DNA of 62,797 bases, filler included, from Collodictyon triciliatum (lineage: Eukaryota), in assembly GCA_043381765.1 (NCBI GenBank). It is 7 parts of 7 records of this genome, joined end to end, with 100 filler letters (N's around TTAATTAATTAA, not from the genome) between each part and the next. Parts side by side here need not be neighbours in the genome. Positions count along the whole stretch, not along the records: positions 18,610 to 28,041 come from JBHJMP010003015.1; 6 more parts are not named here. One strand, given 5' to 3'. The notes below the pieces were generated by a model. That model saw nothing but the letters and a program-made list of their open reading frames with translations. It was not told where the DNA came from and ran no database searches. Positions within the stretch are counted from its first letter, which is position 1. The number at the start of each line of letters is the position of its first letter. Made by a program: the position numbers and the translations under genes. Below are positions 8,975 through 28,141 of the stretch, piece after piece.

Positions 8975-9074
8975 NNNNNNNNNNNNNNNNNNNNNNNNNN
9001 NNNNNNNNNNNNNNNNNNTTAATTAATTAANNNNNNNNNNNNNNNNNNNNNNNNNNNNNNNNNNNNNNNNNNNN
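8975..9074. other. Artificial contig linker N44-TTAATTAATTAA-N44
   Basis: Identical 100-nt spacer whose core places stops in all six frames. Confidence 0.98.
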
Positions 9075-9180
9075 GAGTGAGAGAGTGAGAGAGTGAGAGA
9101 GTGAGAGAGTGAGAGAGTGAGAGAGTGAGAGAGTGAGAGAGTGAGAGAGTGAGAGAGTGAGAGAGTGAGAGAGTGAGAGA
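9075..9180. repeat. (GAGTGAGA)n microsatellite at contig edge
   Basis: Perfect octamer run immediately 3' of the WD40 receptor stop codon. Confidence 0.95.
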
Positions 9181-9183
9181 TTC

Positions 9184-12151
9184 TTAGAGAGAAATTGATG
9201 GACTTTCAGTAAAAATAATCATCTCTTTGTCTTTTTTTAAATCCTCCCATTTACCTCTTGTGTAGATAAAAATGGATGAATTCAAAACAGGGTCGAATAT
9301 AGGTTGCACCAGTCTCTCTACTTTTCCAAAGAAAGAAACGATGAACGCTGGGCCAGCTCTGTACAAAAAAACCACTGCAATCAACCCGTTAGACAATGTG
9401 ACTAGAGCCATAAGTAAATATTCGGCAAAAATGCTAAGGTCTGAATACCGAAACAAAAGACTTGTCATCAACGTGAAGTAAAGGACTGATATAGAGTAAA
9501 TTTGTGCCTCTTTGAGCACATTCGACATAAATGGGTTGAAGTAAATTGATAAGCCGATGCTTAATATCAAAATCCATGAACCAAAGTAAATTTGTAAAGA
9601 TGAAGAGAAAAGGACGCTTACAACAACAACAAGAAGCTTTTGCATCATAGTCACGATTTCCCAGTAATAACATCTTTCATTGTATCCATCCACCAAAAAT
9701 CGAAGCAAATTGTATGTATCGGATGTAGGATTTAGTAGTGATGACCTTTTGCGAAACATATAAGAGGCTAGAAGAAGTGGGCCACCAAAACAATACAGAA
9801 TCAGGTAAACCAATGAAAAAGATTTCCATATCAAATAAGTCGAGTCATTACACATAATTGACATATCAGCCTTCAAGTAACTTTCATCACCCAATCTCAC
9901 GCACCCAAATATATTTGATACCGATGATGTGATAGTTGGGTGAACAAAAATCAGCATAACCAGCATCGAAAATATAAATTCTTGATTCATCTTGTAGAGT
10001 GTTACATCTTTCATATCGATTTGGTTTGTCTTTAGTCTCCACACGGTCTTGAAAAATACCGCAAATGAGATTATGACCATCAAAACAAGTGGTGTGGCCA
10101 TTGCGCCTAATACTTTTTTGTATATATCCATGTCGAACTGACATTCCGTTGTATAATTGTCTATCGATAGGGAAAACGATAAAAAGCTCGGAATATTCAT
10201 CACGGAAACAATCGCCGAACTCCAGTTCACATCAAAGTTTGCAAGAAATGATAGAATTTGAAAATGTGTCGCTAGTGTCTTCAGAATTTGAATGTTGTCT
10301 GTTTTTGGTTGTCTTGACTGCTCTATCATATAAAAAACAAATGCTATAGGAAGGAGAATACTCAAAAAAACAAGAAATCCGTTGACCGTTCTTGATGTGC
10401 ATTCAATACAGAAATTTTCGCTTGCTTTTCCGTAACCTTGGTCACAAACACCACACAGTACTCCCTTGTAACCCTGTGCACATGTGATGTTGTTATCTCC
10501 TCCAATACAAGCTTCCTCATTTAGACATTTGTATGCGATATATTCTCCATTTGAGCTTGGAGCTTGCCAATATCCAGGATCGACTTTAAGCTTACTGCTT
10601 CCGTCACAATTAAATCCATAAGGGCAGTCCTTGCACTGTTTAGAACTTGATTCCAAGTAAGTTGAACGAAGACATAAACAGTCCTTAATCGTTGTTGACC
10701 CTGTTTTACCTCCATTCCACCCACTTCCACATGATATACATTCTGCTTGACCTGTTGCCGGGTTGTAAGTTCCAATGGGACATAATGGACATGATTCTTG
10801 ACCAGTGGATGGATTGTATGTACCAGCTGCACATGAAAGACATGCACTAACATTTGTAGAACCGGTTAATGGGTTGTATGTACCAGCTAGACATGAAATA
10901 CATGCATTGACACTTGTAGAACCATTTGATGGGTTGTATGTACCAGCTAGACATGAAATACATTCACGAATACCTTTCGAACCATTTTTAGGATTGTATG
11001 TACCAGTTGGGCATAAAGAACAAGATAAGGTTTCTTCAGCACTATAGCTCCCAGATGGGCATAATTGACAAGACTGTGAATCTGAATCATAAAACACGCC
11101 AGCAGCAGCACAAAGTCCCCAAATTTTGATTGTTCTATCATCACTCCCAGAAACAATTTTAGAACCATCAGGAGTGACAGTAACGCTGTAAACCCAATCA
11201 GTATGACTAGTCAATGTGCGAATCAGAGTTCCATCAGAAAGATTCCAAACTTTTATTGTATTATCACCACCTCCAGAAACAATCTTCGAACCACCAGGAG
11301 TAACAGCAACACAGCGAACCCATTTGGTATGACCAGTCAGTGTGCGAATCAAAGCTCCATTAGATAGGTTCCAGATTTTGATTGTATTATCAATTCCAAA
11401 AAAAGAATCATGACCGCCAGATATAATTTTTGAGCCATCAGGAGTAACAGCAACACTGACAATATAACTTGTATCATTCAATGTGCGAGTCAAAGTTCCA
11501 TCAGAAAGATTCCAAATTTTGATTGTATTGTCCCCGCTTCCAGAAACAATTTTTAAACCATCAGGAGTAACAGCAACACTGTTGACATACTTTGTATCAT
11601 TCAATGTGCGAGTCAAAGTTCCATTAGAAAGATTCCAAATTTTTATTGTATTATCCCAACTTCCAGAAACAATTTTTAAACCATCAGGAGTAACAGCAAC
11701 ACTTACAATATAACTTGTATCATTCAATGTGCGGATCAAAGTTCCATCAGAAAGATTCCAAATTTTGATTGTATTATCCCAACTTCCAGAAACAATTTTT
11801 AAACCATCAGGAGTAACAGCAACACTGTTGACATAATTTGTATCATTAAATGTGCGGATCAAAGTTCCATCAGAAAGATTCCAAATTTTGATTGTATTGT
11901 CCCAACTACCTGAAACAATTTTTAAACCATCGGGAGTAACAGCTACACTGCGAACCCAGTTGGTATGACCAGTTAGTGTGCGAATCAAACTATCTTTCCC
12001 TTCAACAAGGCGCAATTGGCAGTGGAGCATCAATCCTAACAATGTATTAATTAAAATTCTATGTGCTATAAAGTCAATGAAATTTAAACAATATGAATAA
12101 TGTCTCACCCAACAGCAACACAGCTGCAAAAGACTTTGAATGTAACCTCAT
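9184..12151 (-). CDS. Putative surface receptor: signal peptide + 7 WD40 repeats + Cys-rich GCC2/GCC3 (ephrin-receptor-like) repeats + multi-pass TM domain
   Basis: ATG at 12151 (MRLHSKSFAAVLLL), a 43-nt GT-AG intron at 12108-12066, then the long ORF. It has seven WD40 units (SVAVTPDGxKIVSGSxDNTIKIWNL), CxxCxAGTYNP repeats, a CAQGYKGVLCGVC motif and about 8-9 hydrophobic segments. Stop at 9184. Confidence 0.85.
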
Positions 12152-18509: not shown

Positions 18510-18609
18510 NNNNNNNNNNNNNNNNNNNNNNNNNNNNNNNNNNNNNNNNNNNNTTAATTAATTAANNNNNNNNNNNNNNNNNNNNNNNNNNNNNNNNNNN
18601 NNNNNNNNN
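18510..18609. other. Artificial contig linker
   Basis: N44-TTAATTAATTAA-N44. Confidence 0.98.
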
Positions 18610-24336: not shown

Positions 24337-27300
24337 ATGCTTTTGGTTGCCTTCATTGCCATCGTTTTCATTGTTTCATCGGCATCCTCAATTCATCCAC
24401 GTCAAAGGTATAGTTTGATTTATGAATATTTATAAAATACACTTTCAACTCAAATAAGAAAAACAGATGCCAGTATTCAAGAGATGAGTTGCTTTCCATG
24501 AAAGTCGAAGATGCATTCCAAATTCTGTTGAGCTACTACGATGAGACATGCCCTTTGTTAAAAGAGAGTGAAGATAGCTTTACAGGGTTGATGAATGGCT
24601 GGAAAGATGGAGATTACTCGCTAGGAAATGGACATGGTGCTGAATGGAATTATGGAAGAAAATTAACATCTAGTAAGGCCGATTTCTACAAAGAAATTCA
24701 TCCGCCAATACGAAGTGGAAACAGAGAACGGGGGTTGGAGAATAAAGAGAACCGAAGTGTGGCCGATGGAAATCCTGGGACCCAATACGAACTGCTTGTC
24801 CAACTTTACGATTCACTTGGTGGCAACAATTGGTTTCGGAACACTGGATGGAAGAATGAAACTATCCCGATTTGTGATTGGTATGGAATATCGTGTCATC
24901 AGAACTGCTCGGATGAAGACTATAAGGTAATTCCTTGAAATAATAATCTCTTTTGATTTCATTTTTAACATATTTTCCTTTATATTTATAGAGAAACACA
25001 TGCCCTATCGTGGAAATCAGGATGTCAGAAAACAATCTTAACGGTAACATTGAAGCTGCCTCGGCGATTTTTGAGAAGCTCCAATTATTAGATTCCTTGG
25101 ACATGAGCTTCAATTTCATTTACGGAAATCTTCCAGACTTTAATCTCCCAAGCATTACGTATTTGAACGTCTATGTTAATCAAATGACAGGAACGATTCC
25201 AGACTTTCAAGGAATGCCGAATATTGAACATCTTGATATTAATGGGAATGAATTGGAAGGAACAATACCAGATTTTTCTGAAATTCAGTCGCTAAAGAAA
25301 TTATACATTGGTGAAAGTGAAAAAATTACAGGTATCAAGTAACATCCAATATGATTTATTCTGAATTCTAATGATTTTTCCATTTCAGGAACTCTTCCTG
25401 ACTTCTCAGCGTTGCCCAATGTTCAGATTCTTGGAATTTATAGCTGCAAAGTTCATGGTTTGTTTTTTCTATTTTATTAAAAGTGAAGGTGTACTAGCGT
25501 AACTTATTTTTATTTCAGGCACAGTTCCAAACTTTAATGGAATTCCGAATGTTGAAATAATATATCTTGACAACAATCAATTAGATGGTAAGTTTTAACT
25601 ATTATTTCATGTATTATTATTAAAAAAAACTAACTTTACATTACAGGGACCATTCCAAACTTCAGTGGGATTCCAAATGTTGAAATAATTTCTCTTGGCA
25701 ACAACCAATTGACTGGTAATTATTGTTATAATTTCATTGTTGATATAAAAAACTGACTAAATTTATATAACAGGAACAGTTCCAAACTTCAGTGAAATCC
25801 AAAGTGTTGAAAAAATTTATCTAAACGACAATCAATTAACTGGTAAGTTTTGTGATAATTTTATGTATTATTTATAAAAATCTGACTAACTTTACATTAC
25901 AGGAACGGTTCCAAACTTCAGTGATATTCCAAAAGTTGAAAGAATTTATCTTTCCAGTAATCAATTGACGGGTATTTTTATAGTTATTCACATATACCTG
26001 GAAAAAAAAACTAACTTATATTATAGGAACGGTTCCAAACTTCAGTGAAATTCCAAAAGTTGAAAGAATTGGTATTTCTAGCAATCAGTTAATTAGTAAG
26101 TTTTATGACAATTTTATGTATTTTTGATGAAAAACTAACTTTTTATTATAGGAACGGTTCCAAACTTCAGCAAAATTGCAATAGTTGAAATTATTTTTCT
26201 CGGCAATAATCAATTAAATGGTATAGTTTTATGAATATTTCATGCATAAATGAAAAACTGACCTTTTATTACAGGAACCGTTCCAAACTTCATTGGGATT
26301 TCTAATCTCGAAAAAATTTACCTTGACAGAAACAGATTGAATGGTGATTTCTAATTATTTTCCCTTTTTTTTGATTTTCATGTTTCCTTCAATTTTAATG
26401 AGTAATTTTAGGCACAATCCCAAACTTCTCAAATTTGAGAAAACTGGAGATTTTTTCTGTTTATGAGAATCAACTGGAAGGAGAGGTTCCAGATTTCAAA
26501 GGTTGCGACAAAGTCAAGGAAATATTGTTGTTTCGAAATAAGTTGTCAGGTACATTGCCGATGTTCAATCTTAATAATCTGACAAGACTTGATGTGAGCG
26601 AAAACCAAATCAGTGGCTCTATCCCAGAAAATTGGATATTGCCATCAATTAAATACATCGACTTGTCTTGGAACAAAATGAACGGTACAGTCCCAACCTA
26701 TTTCCAGGAATTACCAGAACTGAAATCACTCGTTTTGTCTAACAACCGATTCTCTGGAAGCATGCCTGATTTATTCTGGAATCTGCCGAATCTAGTCACT
26801 ATTGATTTAAGAAACAACTCGTTTGCAGGTGATGTCAGGTTTTTTATTGTTCCAGCTTCAGGCAAATACGATTACTTTTATGAAAACCTGTTGCTTGATG
26901 ATAACCAAATCTATGGAGTATTGAATTATAGGGTTTTTGACTTCGTCCTCAGCATAAAAACATTAAGCCTTAAAAACAACAACATCACTTATCTTGATGA
27001 ACTTACAAATTTATTGAGATGGACCTCCCTTGACCTCACTGGAAATCCGATTGTTGGGAGCATTCCTGAATCATACATAGGATTTTCAAAGCTTGAGTAT
27101 CTGGGATTGAATGAAACATCTATGAATCACGGAACAGCTAATTTTCTTCCTGATTTCATGAATTTCACAACATCTTTCAATATTCAAGATGAATCAAAAC
27201 GCTACCTTTGTCCTTCCATTATTTCGAAATCTGGTCTGATTGAATTAGATGTTGACTTGAATCCAGAATACTATGACTTTGAATTTTGTAAATGTTTGCC

Positions 27301-27997
27301 TGGATATTTCGGCTTTGGAAATAATTGCGTTCAATGCCCAAGAGGATGTGATTGCCTTGATGGAACATCCTTGAAATTCTGTCATGCTTCACCAAGTATT
27401 ACCTCTGTGAAATCAATACTGCCGTGTCCACGTCGCGAGTCATGTGATGTATCGATTCCAGAGAAAAATTCGAATTCAAGTACCATGGTCGAAATCATAG
27501 ACATGTGTCAGGAAGGCTATGAAAGTTATGCCTGCTCAAAATGTCGGAATGGACACGGAAATCAAGGGAGGTCGTGTGTGAAATGCGATAAAGGAACAAT
27601 TTATTCAACCCTGATTCTTGGTTCGATTGGATTTTTTATGTTCATTTGCTATCTGTATTTCACAGAGACATCAAAATCAGGTAAATGTCACTAAATTATT
27701 TTCACTTTGATTCTTCCCATATTAATCAGAATATTTCATTCAGCGAAACTAAGGATAATAATGTTCCACATGCAAACACTGTCGATTGTGTCTAGTGGAC
27801 TCGTTCTTTCAGAAGATGCAAACAGCTTTATTGATGTTTCATCGTCAATTGGTTCAATCCAATTTCCCAACCTTTCCTGTGTCCTTGGAGTAGACGATGT
27901 GTTTGCTTCTCTGATGTTCAGTTTTGCAAGAATACCAATCTTTATCATAGTTGGCTCAGCCACGTACTATTTTGGATATGGGCACAAGCAGAACAAA
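24337..27997 (+). CDS. Putative LRR surface receptor: signal peptide + LRRNT cap + plant-type extracellular LRRs + Cys-rich region + TM segments; 3' truncated by contig end
   Basis: Signal-like MLLVAFIAIVFIVSSASS; cap LYDSLGGNNWFRNTGW...ICDWYGISC; LxxLxLxxNxLxGTIP repeats; CKCLPGYFG...CQEGYESYACSKC; then TM helices and KLRIIMFHMQTLS. A possible extra in-frame upstream exon starts at 24174. Confidence 0.88.
25389..26343 (+). repeat. Tandem array of eight 69-nt exons (one 23-aa LRR each) with related ~55-60 nt phase-1 introns
   Basis: Exons at 25389-25457, 25519-25587, 25647-25715, 25774-25842, 25903-25971, 26027-26095, 26152-26220 and 26275-26343. Most introns share AAAA(A)CT(A/G)AC branch motifs and ttacag/ttatag ends. 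Confidence 0.92.
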
Positions 27998-28041
27998 GTA
28001 AGGAGGAAAAATACTAATAATTGTAAATTCATCATATTAGT

Positions 28042-28141
28042 NNNNNNNNNNNNNNNNNNNNNNNNNNNNNNNNNNNNNNNNNNNNTTAATTAATTAANNN
28101 NNNNNNNNNNNNNNNNNNNNNNNNNNNNNNNNNNNNNNNNN
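28042..28141. other. Artificial contig linker
   Basis: N44-TTAATTAATTAA-N44. Confidence 0.98.

Follow-up and report, generated by a model that had tools for sequence, protein, structure and literature searches.

Eight exons of identical length, each coding for a single leucine-rich repeat (LRR), stand in succession within a gene of a freshwater protist related to Diphylleia rotans, and they raise the question whether such an array serves to vary the protein, by splicing or by shuffling, or records how its ectodomain grew. We addressed this question in a window of 62,797 nt (the whole stretch of DNA analysed, filler included). The array region is the mid-ectodomain of an LRR receptor-like membrane protein. 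As read from its sequence, the product appears to begin with a probable signal peptide and an LRRNT-like cap and to continue through about 23 LRRs into a Cys-rich stalk and a multi-pass membrane tail (Table 1). The gene is cut at position 28041 by the end of its segment, with the spacer following at 28042-28141 and its own C-terminus missing. All 12 introns of the gene model are bounded by GT and AG, and retention of any one of them leads to an in-frame stop. The LRR_8, LRR_4, and LRR_1 families of Pfam (consensus LxxLxLxxNxLxGxIP) match with 67.8, 63.2, and 59.9 bits, above the cut-off, and the LRRNT_2 match in exon 2 reaches 20.0 bits against a cut-off of 20.7. An Rfam gathering scan of the window returned no match.

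Table 1 Features of the LRR receptor-like gene and of its exon array, with positions along the window.
Feature	Position	Strand	Basis and remarks
Exon 1: start codon and hydrophobic N-terminus, probable signal peptide	24337-24407	+	Signal peptide judged by eye from translation
Exon 2: N-terminal cap with LRRNT-like Cys motif	24467-24926	+	Pfam LRRNT_2 E 8e-4; splice sites
Exon 3: about five LRRs, uninterrupted 340 nt; last base is first of Gly codon	24992-25331	+	Pfam LRR_4 2.6e-13
Phase-1 intron before cassette 1, 57 nt	25332-25388	+	GT..AG; 50-62% identity to other introns (baseline)
Cassette exon 1	25389-25457	+	69 nt, phase 1-1; older, divergent LRR
Phase-1 intron between cassettes 1 and 2, 61 nt	25458-25518	+	55-62% identity; only last 7-12 nt homologous
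DNA-level tandem array, 7 exons and 6 introns	25507-26350	+	Unit 123-129 nt; TRF, repeat search
Cassette exon 2	25519-25587	+	AG/69 nt/GT scan, identity, codon table
Array intron, 59 nt, CTAAC at -17	25588-25646	+	Identity and splice-signal check
Cassette exon 3	25647-25715	+	AG/69 nt/GT scan, identity, codon table
Array intron, 58 nt, CTGAC at -21	25716-25773	+	Identity and splice-signal check
Cassette exon 4	25774-25842	+	AG/69 nt/GT scan, identity, codon table
Array intron, 60 nt, branch-like motif at -21	25843-25902	+	Identity and splice-signal check
Cassette exon 5	25903-25971	+	Scan, identity; confirmed by metagenome contig of run X1
Array intron, 55 nt, CTAAC at -16	25972-26026	+	Identity and splice-signal check
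Cassette exon 6	26027-26095	+	Scan, identity; last base A
Array intron, 56 nt, CTAAC at -17	26096-26151	+	Identity and splice-signal check
Cassette exon 7	26152-26220	+	AG/69 nt/GT scan, identity, codon table
Array intron, 54 nt, CTGAC at -17	26221-26274	+	Identity and splice-signal check
Cassette exon 8	26275-26343	+	Scan, identity; covered by X1 contig
Phase-1 intron after array, 68 nt	26344-26411	+	47-57% identity, non-homologous to array introns
Large exon, 1269 nt: about ten more LRRs, Cys-rich stalk, first membrane helix	26412-27680	+	Pfam LRR_8 6.8e-19, LRR_4, LRR_1; weak DUF7630
Phase-1 intron, 63 nt	27681-27743	+	Exon end S/G common to P0126 and P0137
Next exon: multi-pass membrane tail begins	27744-27997	+	Open frame; aligns to tails of Diphylleia proteins

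A scan of positions 25300-26450 for 69-nt segments preceded by AG, followed by GT, and open in a phase-1 frame returned exactly eight exons. All eight measure 69 nt, each codes for one 23-residue LRR, and together they span 25389-26343. In each, the first two bases complete one junction codon and the last base opens another, which makes the whole array phase 1-1. A preliminary description of this DNA had reported the eight consecutive exons and their phase, eight beta-strand strings, and flanking LRRs in long exons; the first was borne out by the scan, the second was reproduced by the exon translations, and the third agrees with the 340-nt and 1269-nt exons on either side. Nine phase-1 introns follow one another here, each splitting the Gly codon of G-x-[IV]-P, with all 18 splice dinucleotides intact and no stop in the 8 x 23 codons. 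Because cassette exon 6 ends in A, the junction codon after it reads AGA (Arg) instead of Gly, which is odd for a constitutively included unit; the structural Gly is kept at the seven other junctions. A CT[AG]A[CT] motif lies 16-21 nt upstream of the acceptor in six of six array introns, and the donor sites differ among GTAAGT (three times), GTTTGT, GTATTT, GTATAG, and GTGATT.

The exon and its intron were duplicated in tandem as one unit, and homology now extends over seven exons and six introns. In pairwise DNA comparison, exons 2-8 reach 64-84% identity (mean 74.5%), and the six introns between them 63-80% (mean 72%), against a shuffled-pair baseline of 54 +/- 3.5% with a maximum of 64%. 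Tandem Repeats Finder gave a period of 124-127 with 6.2-6.6 copies, 72-73% matches, and an array start at 25507-25512 (period 127 at 25512-26350, 6.6 copies, 73%), and a repeat search of the window found one family of seven copies (D1) spaced 123-129 nt apart; the tandem duplication proposed in the preliminary description is thus upheld. Its wording that the introns are mutually similar fits the six between exons 2 and 8 and fails for the intron between cassettes 1 and 2 and the two outer introns, which at 47-62% identity are non-homologous. Cassette exon 1 likewise stands apart, with 48-57% DNA identity to exons 2-8 and at most 10 of 23 residues common with the other cassettes. Units 2-8 mutually share 16-19 of 23 residues and share no more than 13 of 23 with any other LRR of their own protein or of 18 relatives; being far closer to one another than to other LRRs, they mark an expansion specific to this gene lineage. 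A 20-nt motif of acceptor and exon start matched seven times against 0.01 expected, always on the plus strand and within the array. Two ideas about the introns were rejected: intron gain through a duplicated AGGT-containing exon piece, since the spliced junction lacks AGGT, and the use of introns as a neutral yardstick for dN, about one-third of each 54-61-nt intron being splice signal and the rest near the shuffled baseline.

On this evidence, the array is probably the outcome of tandem exon duplication during evolution, by which the LRR ectodomain grew longer, and not an isoform device. Its starting point was one 69-nt LRR exon between two phase-1 introns, each located in the Gly codon of G-x-[IV]-P; this exon was copied in tandem together with its intron (123-129 nt), and the copies stand after one older single-LRR exon. 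Since the phase is symmetric, such an expansion was possible in frame. All eight exons would normally be kept in the mature transcript, so that a plant-type solenoid of about 23 repeats would gain eight turns of 23 residues each, and the solenoid would sit atop the Cys-rich stalk and the multi-pass membrane tail. The array would then be a record of germline repeat-number evolution by unequal crossing-over or replication slippage.

Over 800-970 residues, beginning at residue 11-25, the spliced product aligns collinearly with Diphylleia transcripts at 28-38% identity; the full-length relatives examined were all Diphylleia rotans transcripts (16 of 18 clusters), and the transcriptome holds at least 16 distinct 90% clusters of the receptor-like family among those looked up. 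In eight full-length Diphylleia proteins with the Cys motif, the ectodomain upstream of this motif measures 764-1138 residues, a range that fits gain and loss of units over evolutionary time. A metagenome relative with 52% identity (P0126) keeps the position of the 26344-26411 intron, and its called ORF leads from an acceptor tract into an identical G/T-I-P start. When the large exon is aligned to P0126 and P0137, all Cys are conserved, and the called ORFs of P0126, P0137, and P0286 begin and stop at the borders of this exon.

The array could instead belong to an actively shuffling recognition locus, comparable to an immune receptor, with fast unit turnover under diversifying selection. The size of the family (at least 16 separate 90% clusters in a single transcriptome) and ectodomain lengths that differ by up to 374 residues among Diphylleia paralogues would suit such a locus, as would exposed positions that evolve three times faster than the framework. 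Over units 2-8, dN/dS is 0.29 overall, 0.21 at framework codons, and 0.68-0.76 at the concave x positions, the last being based on 4-5 codons in seven units with dS near saturation. The framework residues are under purifying selection, while the surface residues drift almost freely, in the concave strand and the preceding loop alike. A value of 0.7 at the x positions may be compatible with episodic positive selection; dN/dS nevertheless stays below 1 everywhere, including the exposed sites, where the preliminary description had proposed a variable binding surface and had itself named values below 1 as evidence to the contrary. That description had further contrasted a conserved framework with a variable beta-strand. 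Variation extends beyond the beta-strand, however: of the nine positions with at least three residues among units 2-8, five lie outside the LxxLxLxxN segment and four inside, which puts half of the variable positions off the concave face.

The age of the units also speaks against shuffling as an ongoing process. With a closest exon pair 84% identical and dS between copies of about 0.77, the copies are old; there has been no recent duplication or conversion, and shuffling is not currently dynamic. Repeat and motif searches found no inverted, dispersed, or inactivated LRR exon in the window, and an inverted-repeat search returned two matches at chance level only. Copies on the opposite strand, elsewhere, or inactivated within introns are what excerpts of PMC3341825 describe for Ectocarpus, and the window differs in having none.

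Metagenomes gave one further hint in favour of shuffling. A search for sequencing runs that contain the locus listed nine DNA runs from freshwater or unspecified metagenomes (shares 0.05-0.10) and no RNA run, a blank that does not bear on expression. Four of the nine (X1, X2, X4, and X6) were compared with the window; the contigs among those listed measure 131-265 nt, none spans the array, and 25550-25799 is without cover, again a blank. Where environmental contigs stem from the same organism, they agree with the window at 99-100% identity. Two from X1 cover 25847-26096 with two differences and 26226-26371 with none, and since these independent contigs match the array at 99-100%, an assembly artefact is excluded in those stretches. 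In X2, a relative 90-95% alike has a contig composed of cassette 1, an unlike stretch of 39 letters, and sequence that best fits upstream of cassette 5. The first joint leads from 25465 to 25887 (side 36, depth 4.3) and the second from 25981 to 26271 (side 20); the number or order of units may therefore differ in a close relative, although read joints of this kind often stem from repeats or other organisms. A pattern search of metagenome contigs with alignment gave 342 pattern matches, none confirmed. Four candidates from a search of DNA with the 20-nt array motif (L001-L004) were put down to chance, all four matching in the motif alone. Taken together, active shuffling is unlikely.

Combinatorial or stochastic cassette splicing, in which skipped 69-nt exons would yield isoforms with different repeat numbers and binding surfaces, is improbable. 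As all exons are symmetric (69 nt, phase 1-1), the frame survives the loss, gain, or exchange of any unit, as stated in the preliminary description, and combinatorial splicing is possible in frame and unsupported. Introns as short as these are generally recognised by intron definition, under which exon skipping is rare. The array introns, at 54-61 nt with strong branch-like motifs, leave no space for regulatory or docking elements, and both features argue against skipping. Donor sites of unequal strength point the other way, and so does the Arg junction, which would disappear with exon 6 skipped. Of 29 Diphylleia isoform pairs within 90% clusters, none differs by a whole 23-residue LRR, and the single indel in the LRR region amounts to 12 residues; this comparison is a weak one, as it involves clusters of sequences at least 90% alike, pairs that are non-independent within a cluster, and Trinity assemblies, which resolve repeats poorly. 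Precedents for cassette use are given in excerpts on Ectocarpus ROCO (PMC11378527), human NLRP3 exon 5 (PMC6642158), and Medicago SERK3 exon 3 (PMC3061892). According to an excerpt of PMC6142364, the mode that prevails in non-animal eukaryotes is held to be intron retention rather than exon skipping.

The membrane tail allows a broader proposal. The predicted structure of the relative P0217 (pLDDT 81.8) combines an LRR solenoid with a Cys-rich beta region and some nine membrane helices, and the best PDB matches of the whole model in Foldseek are plant LRR receptor-kinase ectodomains (E ~1e-9), which cover LRR ectodomains only. The tail modelled alone (pLDDT 65.4) reached a best Z of 9.4 against 48,161 chains (4m70_A, rmsd 3.6, 102 aligned); as this lies below the noise level for helical bundles, no fold was assigned. 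In the ESM Atlas, the tail fell among protist clusters without names, with PF06011 (TRP) on 12% of the members of one cluster and Ephrin_rec_like on others, which amounts to no more than a lead. Pfam searches of the window exons and five relatives gave only LRR families, LRRNT_2, and DUF7630, without TRP or ROC-COR; no 7TM match was found in the five relatives, and no kinase domain in the three of them that are full-length. This deep-branching Diphylleia-like protist could possess an undescribed receptor family, built from an ectodomain of repeats (LRRs here, WD40 in another gene of the window) together with a Cys-rich stalk and a membrane tail of unassigned fold with roughly nine helices; its symmetric single-LRR exons would serve both germline repeat gain and loss and in-frame skipping. 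If true, it would provide variable recognition surfaces for prey or microbes and represent an independent invention of the strategy of brown-algal ROCO and animal NLR proteins near the base of Amorphea; we regard it as quite improbable.

That the array is non-functional or artefactual, whether as a pseudogene segment in decay or as a tandem repeat assembled wrongly, can hardly be right: the truncation at 28041 and one non-consensus junction residue (Arg) would fit, against which stand an uninterrupted frame with intact splice dinucleotides, an overall dN/dS of 0.29, the independent contig matches to two array stretches, and collinearity of the product with expressed relatives.

Tandem exon duplication, the preferred reading, has parallels in other lineages. 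According to excerpts of PMC3341825 and PMC11378527, type I LRR exons of Ectocarpus and other brown algae are 72 nt long, code for one plant-type LRR each, and form tandem arrays through exon duplication. The likeness claimed earlier is real in so far as these excerpts go: both kinds of exon run from the G of G-x-x-P to just past N-x-L-x, and the junction codon has the same 1/2 split (72 = 2 + 69 + 1 in brown algae, 69 = 2 + 66 + 1 here). The present exons differ in length (69 nt or 23 residues, against 72 nt or 24) and in host, a Diphylleia-like protist as opposed to a stramenopile; unlike in Ectocarpus, no positive selection was detected at concave-face sites, and the hallmark of shuffling there, inverted, dispersed, or inactivated LRR exons (PMC3341825, excerpt), is absent here, the 54-61-nt introns containing no additional LRR exon. 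The LRR-ROCO proteins carry ROC-COR GTPase domains, in place of which a Cys-rich stalk and a membrane tail are found here. In Tetrahymena, as excerpted from PMC6564038, tandem 90-bp LRR exons share one uniform phase with an interlocking junction codon, and its authors read them as of clonal origin with successive expansion by unequal crossing-over; that system is said to be in 'phase 2', with tens of thousands of exons and an associated LINE-like element, whereas the DNA available here shows a single array, made up of eight 69-nt exons.

The plant-type LRR repeat measures 24 residues. Extracellular plant-type LRRs are shared with the plant SERK proteins, and the fold matches of P0217 are plant LRR receptor-kinase ectodomains; the present family differs from plant LRR kinases in having no kinase in the relatives scanned, 23-residue repeats, and a multi-pass tail rather than a single helix. 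In the excerpt of PMC3061892, exon 3 of the SERK family codes for the first LRR, and a transcript lacking it exists. The excerpt of PMC6642158 on vertebrate NLRP3 describes LRR exons of equal length with borders at the same place in the repeat, a modularity taken as a precondition for in-frame skipping; NLRP3 differs in its 171-bp exons with two RI-type repeats, its cytosolic location, and the experimentally shown skipping of one exon. The present protein shares with LGR receptors an LRR ectodomain that leads via a Cys-rich part to a multi-pass domain, here with about nine predicted helices and no Pfam 7TM match. Glycoprotein-hormone and LGR receptors consist of an LRR ectodomain, a Cys-rich hinge, and a 7TM domain, with their LRRs in separate in-phase exons. 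LH-receptor LRR exons are mentioned in the excerpt of PMC11378527. In the literature on LRR genes of Diphyllatea, no description of such arrays was found among the matches listed, and the text of a 2026 bioRxiv preprint on collodictyonid draft genomes contains no occurrence of 'LRR', 'leucine-rich', or 'intron'.

The layout thus has precedents in brown algae, ciliates, plants, and vertebrates, and we have here another instance of it; combinatorial splicing or rapid shuffling is the claim that would excite, and to date nothing supports it. An array in which every LRR has an exon of its own is a textbook way for binding domains to grow, and the Diphylleia-like host extends the record to a lineage hardly described at the genome level. 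The locus also brings into view a large family of receptor-like proteins, whose membrane tail has no known-fold match by the tools used, and the junction split of the array, like that of brown algae, bears on whether the intron position in plant-type LRRs is ancient or recurrent.

The LRR gene carries eight exons of exactly 69 nt on the plus strand within 25389-26343, each with AG directly upstream and GT directly downstream. Every one of these cassettes opens with two codon-final bases and closes with one codon-initial base, so all flanking introns are of phase 1. These borders and codon splits confirm the eight phase 1-1 exons of the preliminary description, whose eight beta-strand strings are the exact translation of the cassettes. 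The junction codon of exons 6 and 7 (26095/26152) is AGA, coding for Arg, because exon 6 ends in A, and the other seven junctions encode the structural Gly that is conserved in G-x-[IV]-P. The introns inside the array measure 54-61 nt. Tandem Repeats Finder reported a period of 124-127 nt at 25507-26350 (6.2-6.6 copies, 72-73% matches), and a repeat search found seven copies spaced by 123-129 nt. A 20-nt motif of acceptor plus exon start gave seven matches against 0.01 expected by chance, all of them on the plus strand and in the array. Two stretches are reproduced by short contigs of independent freshwater metagenomes, 25847-26096 with two differences and 26226-26371 with none, and are thus no assembly artefact.

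Positions of the modelled exons of the LRR gene and of the spacers between window pieces
Feature	Position	Strand	Content
Exon 1	24337-24407	+	hydrophobic N-terminus
Exon 2	24467-24926	+	LRRNT-like cap; Pfam 20.0 bits vs cut-off 20.7
Exon 3	24992-25331	+	about five LRRs
Cassette exon 1	25389-25457	+	one LRR
Cassette exon 2	25519-25587	+	one LRR
Cassette exon 3	25647-25715	+	one LRR
Cassette exon 4	25774-25842	+	one LRR
Cassette exon 5	25903-25971	+	one LRR
Cassette exon 6	26027-26095	+	one LRR
Cassette exon 7	26152-26220	+	one LRR
Cassette exon 8	26275-26343	+	one LRR
Large exon	26412-27680	+	about ten LRRs, Cys-rich region, first membrane helix
Next exon	from 27744	+	start of membrane tail
Spacers	8975-9074, 18510-18609, 28042-28141, 37572-37671, 47096-47195, 56619-56718		N44-TTAATTAATTAA-N44

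The gene is truncated at 28041 by the end of its window piece and matches LRR_8 (6.8e-19), LRR_4, and LRR_1 in Pfam. The exon model is supported by end-to-end alignments of the spliced product to proteins derived from transcripts, which span 800-970 residues at 28-38% identity. Many LRR proteins were matched by sequence search, few of the matches also spanning the Cys-rich part. Diphylleia rotans accounts for 16 of the 18 clusters looked up that cover this part, all as EukProt Trinity transcripts; the remaining two are metagenome fragments (52% and 62% identity) whose called ORFs start and stop where the large exon does, indicating two common intron positions. In the Diphylleia proteins, a C-x-C-L-P-x-Y-F-G motif precedes a common tail of about 460 residues, and the ectodomains upstream of the motif span 764-1138 residues. 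The AlphaFold model of one related protein, P0217 (pLDDT 81.8), has about nine membrane helices in addition to an LRR solenoid and a Cys-rich beta region. In the PDB, the model matched ectodomains of plant LRR receptor kinases, such as RGFR1, MIK2, FLS2, and BRI1 (E ~1e-9), and structure searches with the membrane tail by itself led to no fold assignment.

DNA identity among cassette exons 2-8 is 64-84% (mean 74.5%), and identity among the six intervening introns is 63-80% (mean 72%), against a baseline of 54 +/- 3.5% and a maximum of 64% for shuffled intron pairs. Exon 1 compared with the others (48-57%) and the introns preceding exon 1, following exon 1, and following exon 8 (47-62%) stay at baseline. 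The repeat at the DNA level is therefore confined to seven exons and six introns, which were added beside an older single-LRR exon. The preliminary description was right in claiming in-frame modularity and a duplicated unit. Any two of units 2-8 have 16-19 of 23 residues in common, and none of them matches another LRR, whether from the same protein or from 18 relatives, at more than 13 of 23; the expansion of these units occurred inside the gene's own lineage. This expansion is not recent, judging from a dS of about 0.77 among units 2-8 (Nei-Gojobori) and 84% identity for the most alike exon pair, against 99-100% identity between the window and environmental DNA of the same organism and 90-95% for a relative in one metagenome run (X2).

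As far as the sequence goes, any unit could be lost, gained, or exchanged in frame, and combinatorial splicing or shuffling had been proposed to give a variable binding surface. The proposal is unsupported, and three findings partly contradict it: dN/dS stays below 1, the units are old, and shuffling debris is absent. For units 2-8, dN/dS is 0.29 over all 23 codons, 0.21 for framework codons, 0.68 at the five concave positions (x2, x3, x5, x7, and x8 of LxxLxLxxN), and 0.76 at the four of these that vary; in this tiny data set near saturation, no codon set had dN above dS. Framework positions are conserved and surface positions relaxed, and the nine positions with at least three residues are divided between the beta-strand segment (four) and the preceding loop or the stretch after N-Q-L (five). 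No young unit is present in the array, and repeat and motif searches revealed no LRR exon that was inverted, dispersed, or inactivated. Two joints in run X2 might speak for some turnover, one passing in a contig of the 90-95% relative from cassette 1 across 39 dissimilar letters to sequence best fitting just before cassette 5 and the other from 25981 to 26271, but their sides are short (36 and 20 letters), their likeness is below 95%, and such joints often come from repeats or other organisms.

Indirect evidence on splicing also tends to count against exon skipping. Skipping is rare under the intron-definition regime of very short introns with strong signals, and the array introns are of this kind. 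All splice dinucleotides are intact, a CT[AG]A[CT] motif is kept 16-21 nt upstream of the acceptor in all six array introns, and retention of any of 12 introns brings an in-frame stop. Across 29 aligned isoform pairs from the Diphylleia clusters, no difference in the LRR region amounted to a complete 23-residue unit, a weak test because the sequences are Trinity assemblies and the pairs non-independent. P0134 and P0301, two transcripts of Diphylleia rotans with 99% identity, differ in the LRR region by 12 residues, the first of which is the G of G-P-I-P, at a site corresponding to the intron site in the window; either an alternative acceptor or an allelic indel could account for this stretch. 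In the rest of the pairs, the differences lie in the tail or at the ends. The array is probably best explained by an old tandem exon-plus-intron duplication that lengthened the LRR ectodomain, with all cassette exons constitutively spliced.

The array is a further case of the already known single-LRR-exon layout. In Ectocarpus, ROCO genes and 46 of the 164 other LRR loci have one 72-nt exon per LRR, the register being GxxPxxLxxxxxLxxLxLxxNxLx (PMC3341825), and nucleotides 3-71 of the brown-algal exon code for 23 residues (PMC11378527), so the junction codon would be split as in our array. Brown-algal genes are also reported to have additional as well as inverted exons within long introns, positive selection at concave sites, and splice variants (PMC3341825, PMC11378527), whereas in the Collodictyon array neither extra or inverted exons nor positive selection at concave sites were seen. 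Other reports describe about 50,000 LRR exons of exactly 90 bp and one intron phase in Tetrahymena, attributed to a clonal origin with unequal crossing-over (PMC6564038), 171-bp LRR exons with a fixed border place and one skipped exon in human NLRP3 (PMC6642158), and a Medicago SERK3 variant without the exon coding for the first LRR (PMC3061892). Particular to our array are the 69-nt exons, the very short co-duplicated introns, and the Diphylleia-like host, and its gene has a Cys-rich stalk and a multi-pass tail in place of the kinase of plant receptors or the ROC-COR of ROCO proteins. Neither the literature matches listed nor one preprint searched describes LRR exon arrays in Diphyllatea.

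The window consists of seven pieces, six of about 9.4 kb and a last one of about 6 kb; since they are joined by spacers, genes of different pieces should not be taken as neighbours. An SMC3-like hinge exon at 42810-43442 (minus strand) is 67% identical to a Diphylleia rotans protein, the next best match being a plant (40%). With the Diphylleia transcripts among the relatives of the LRR gene, this suggests as host a freshwater organism related to Diphylleia rotans but distinct from that strain. On the same strand lie an uninterrupted frame of 1864 codons, coiled-coil-rich by eye (48165-53759), and two open frames rich in F-G-F-G-Q-T repeats (60187-62611), which we take to resemble FG-nucleoporin. 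A long purine-rich, A-rich low-complexity tract adjoins a spacer at 37672-38100, its frames being Lys/Glu/Arg-rich on one strand and Phe/Leu/Ser-rich on the other.

One open frame of 987 codons at 9184-12147 (minus strand) encodes WD40 repeats (Pfam, 2.6e-67) and Ephrin_rec_like Cys-rich repeats (5.3e-20). Just past its stop, at the piece start, lies a perfect microsatellite, GAGTGAGA, of 13.2 copies (9075-9180). The WD40 repeats at 11417-11950 (minus strand) are arranged in tandem with a 123-nt unit (4.3 copies, 90% matches) and without introns, an expansion that is much younger than the LRR exon array. By tblastn, the frame also encodes a multi-pass tail akin to the one in the LRR gene (26% identity, E 3e-4), so the same stalk and tail appear to bear a beta-propeller in place of LRRs, which, if the WD40 part is extracellular, would be an unusual location for WD40.
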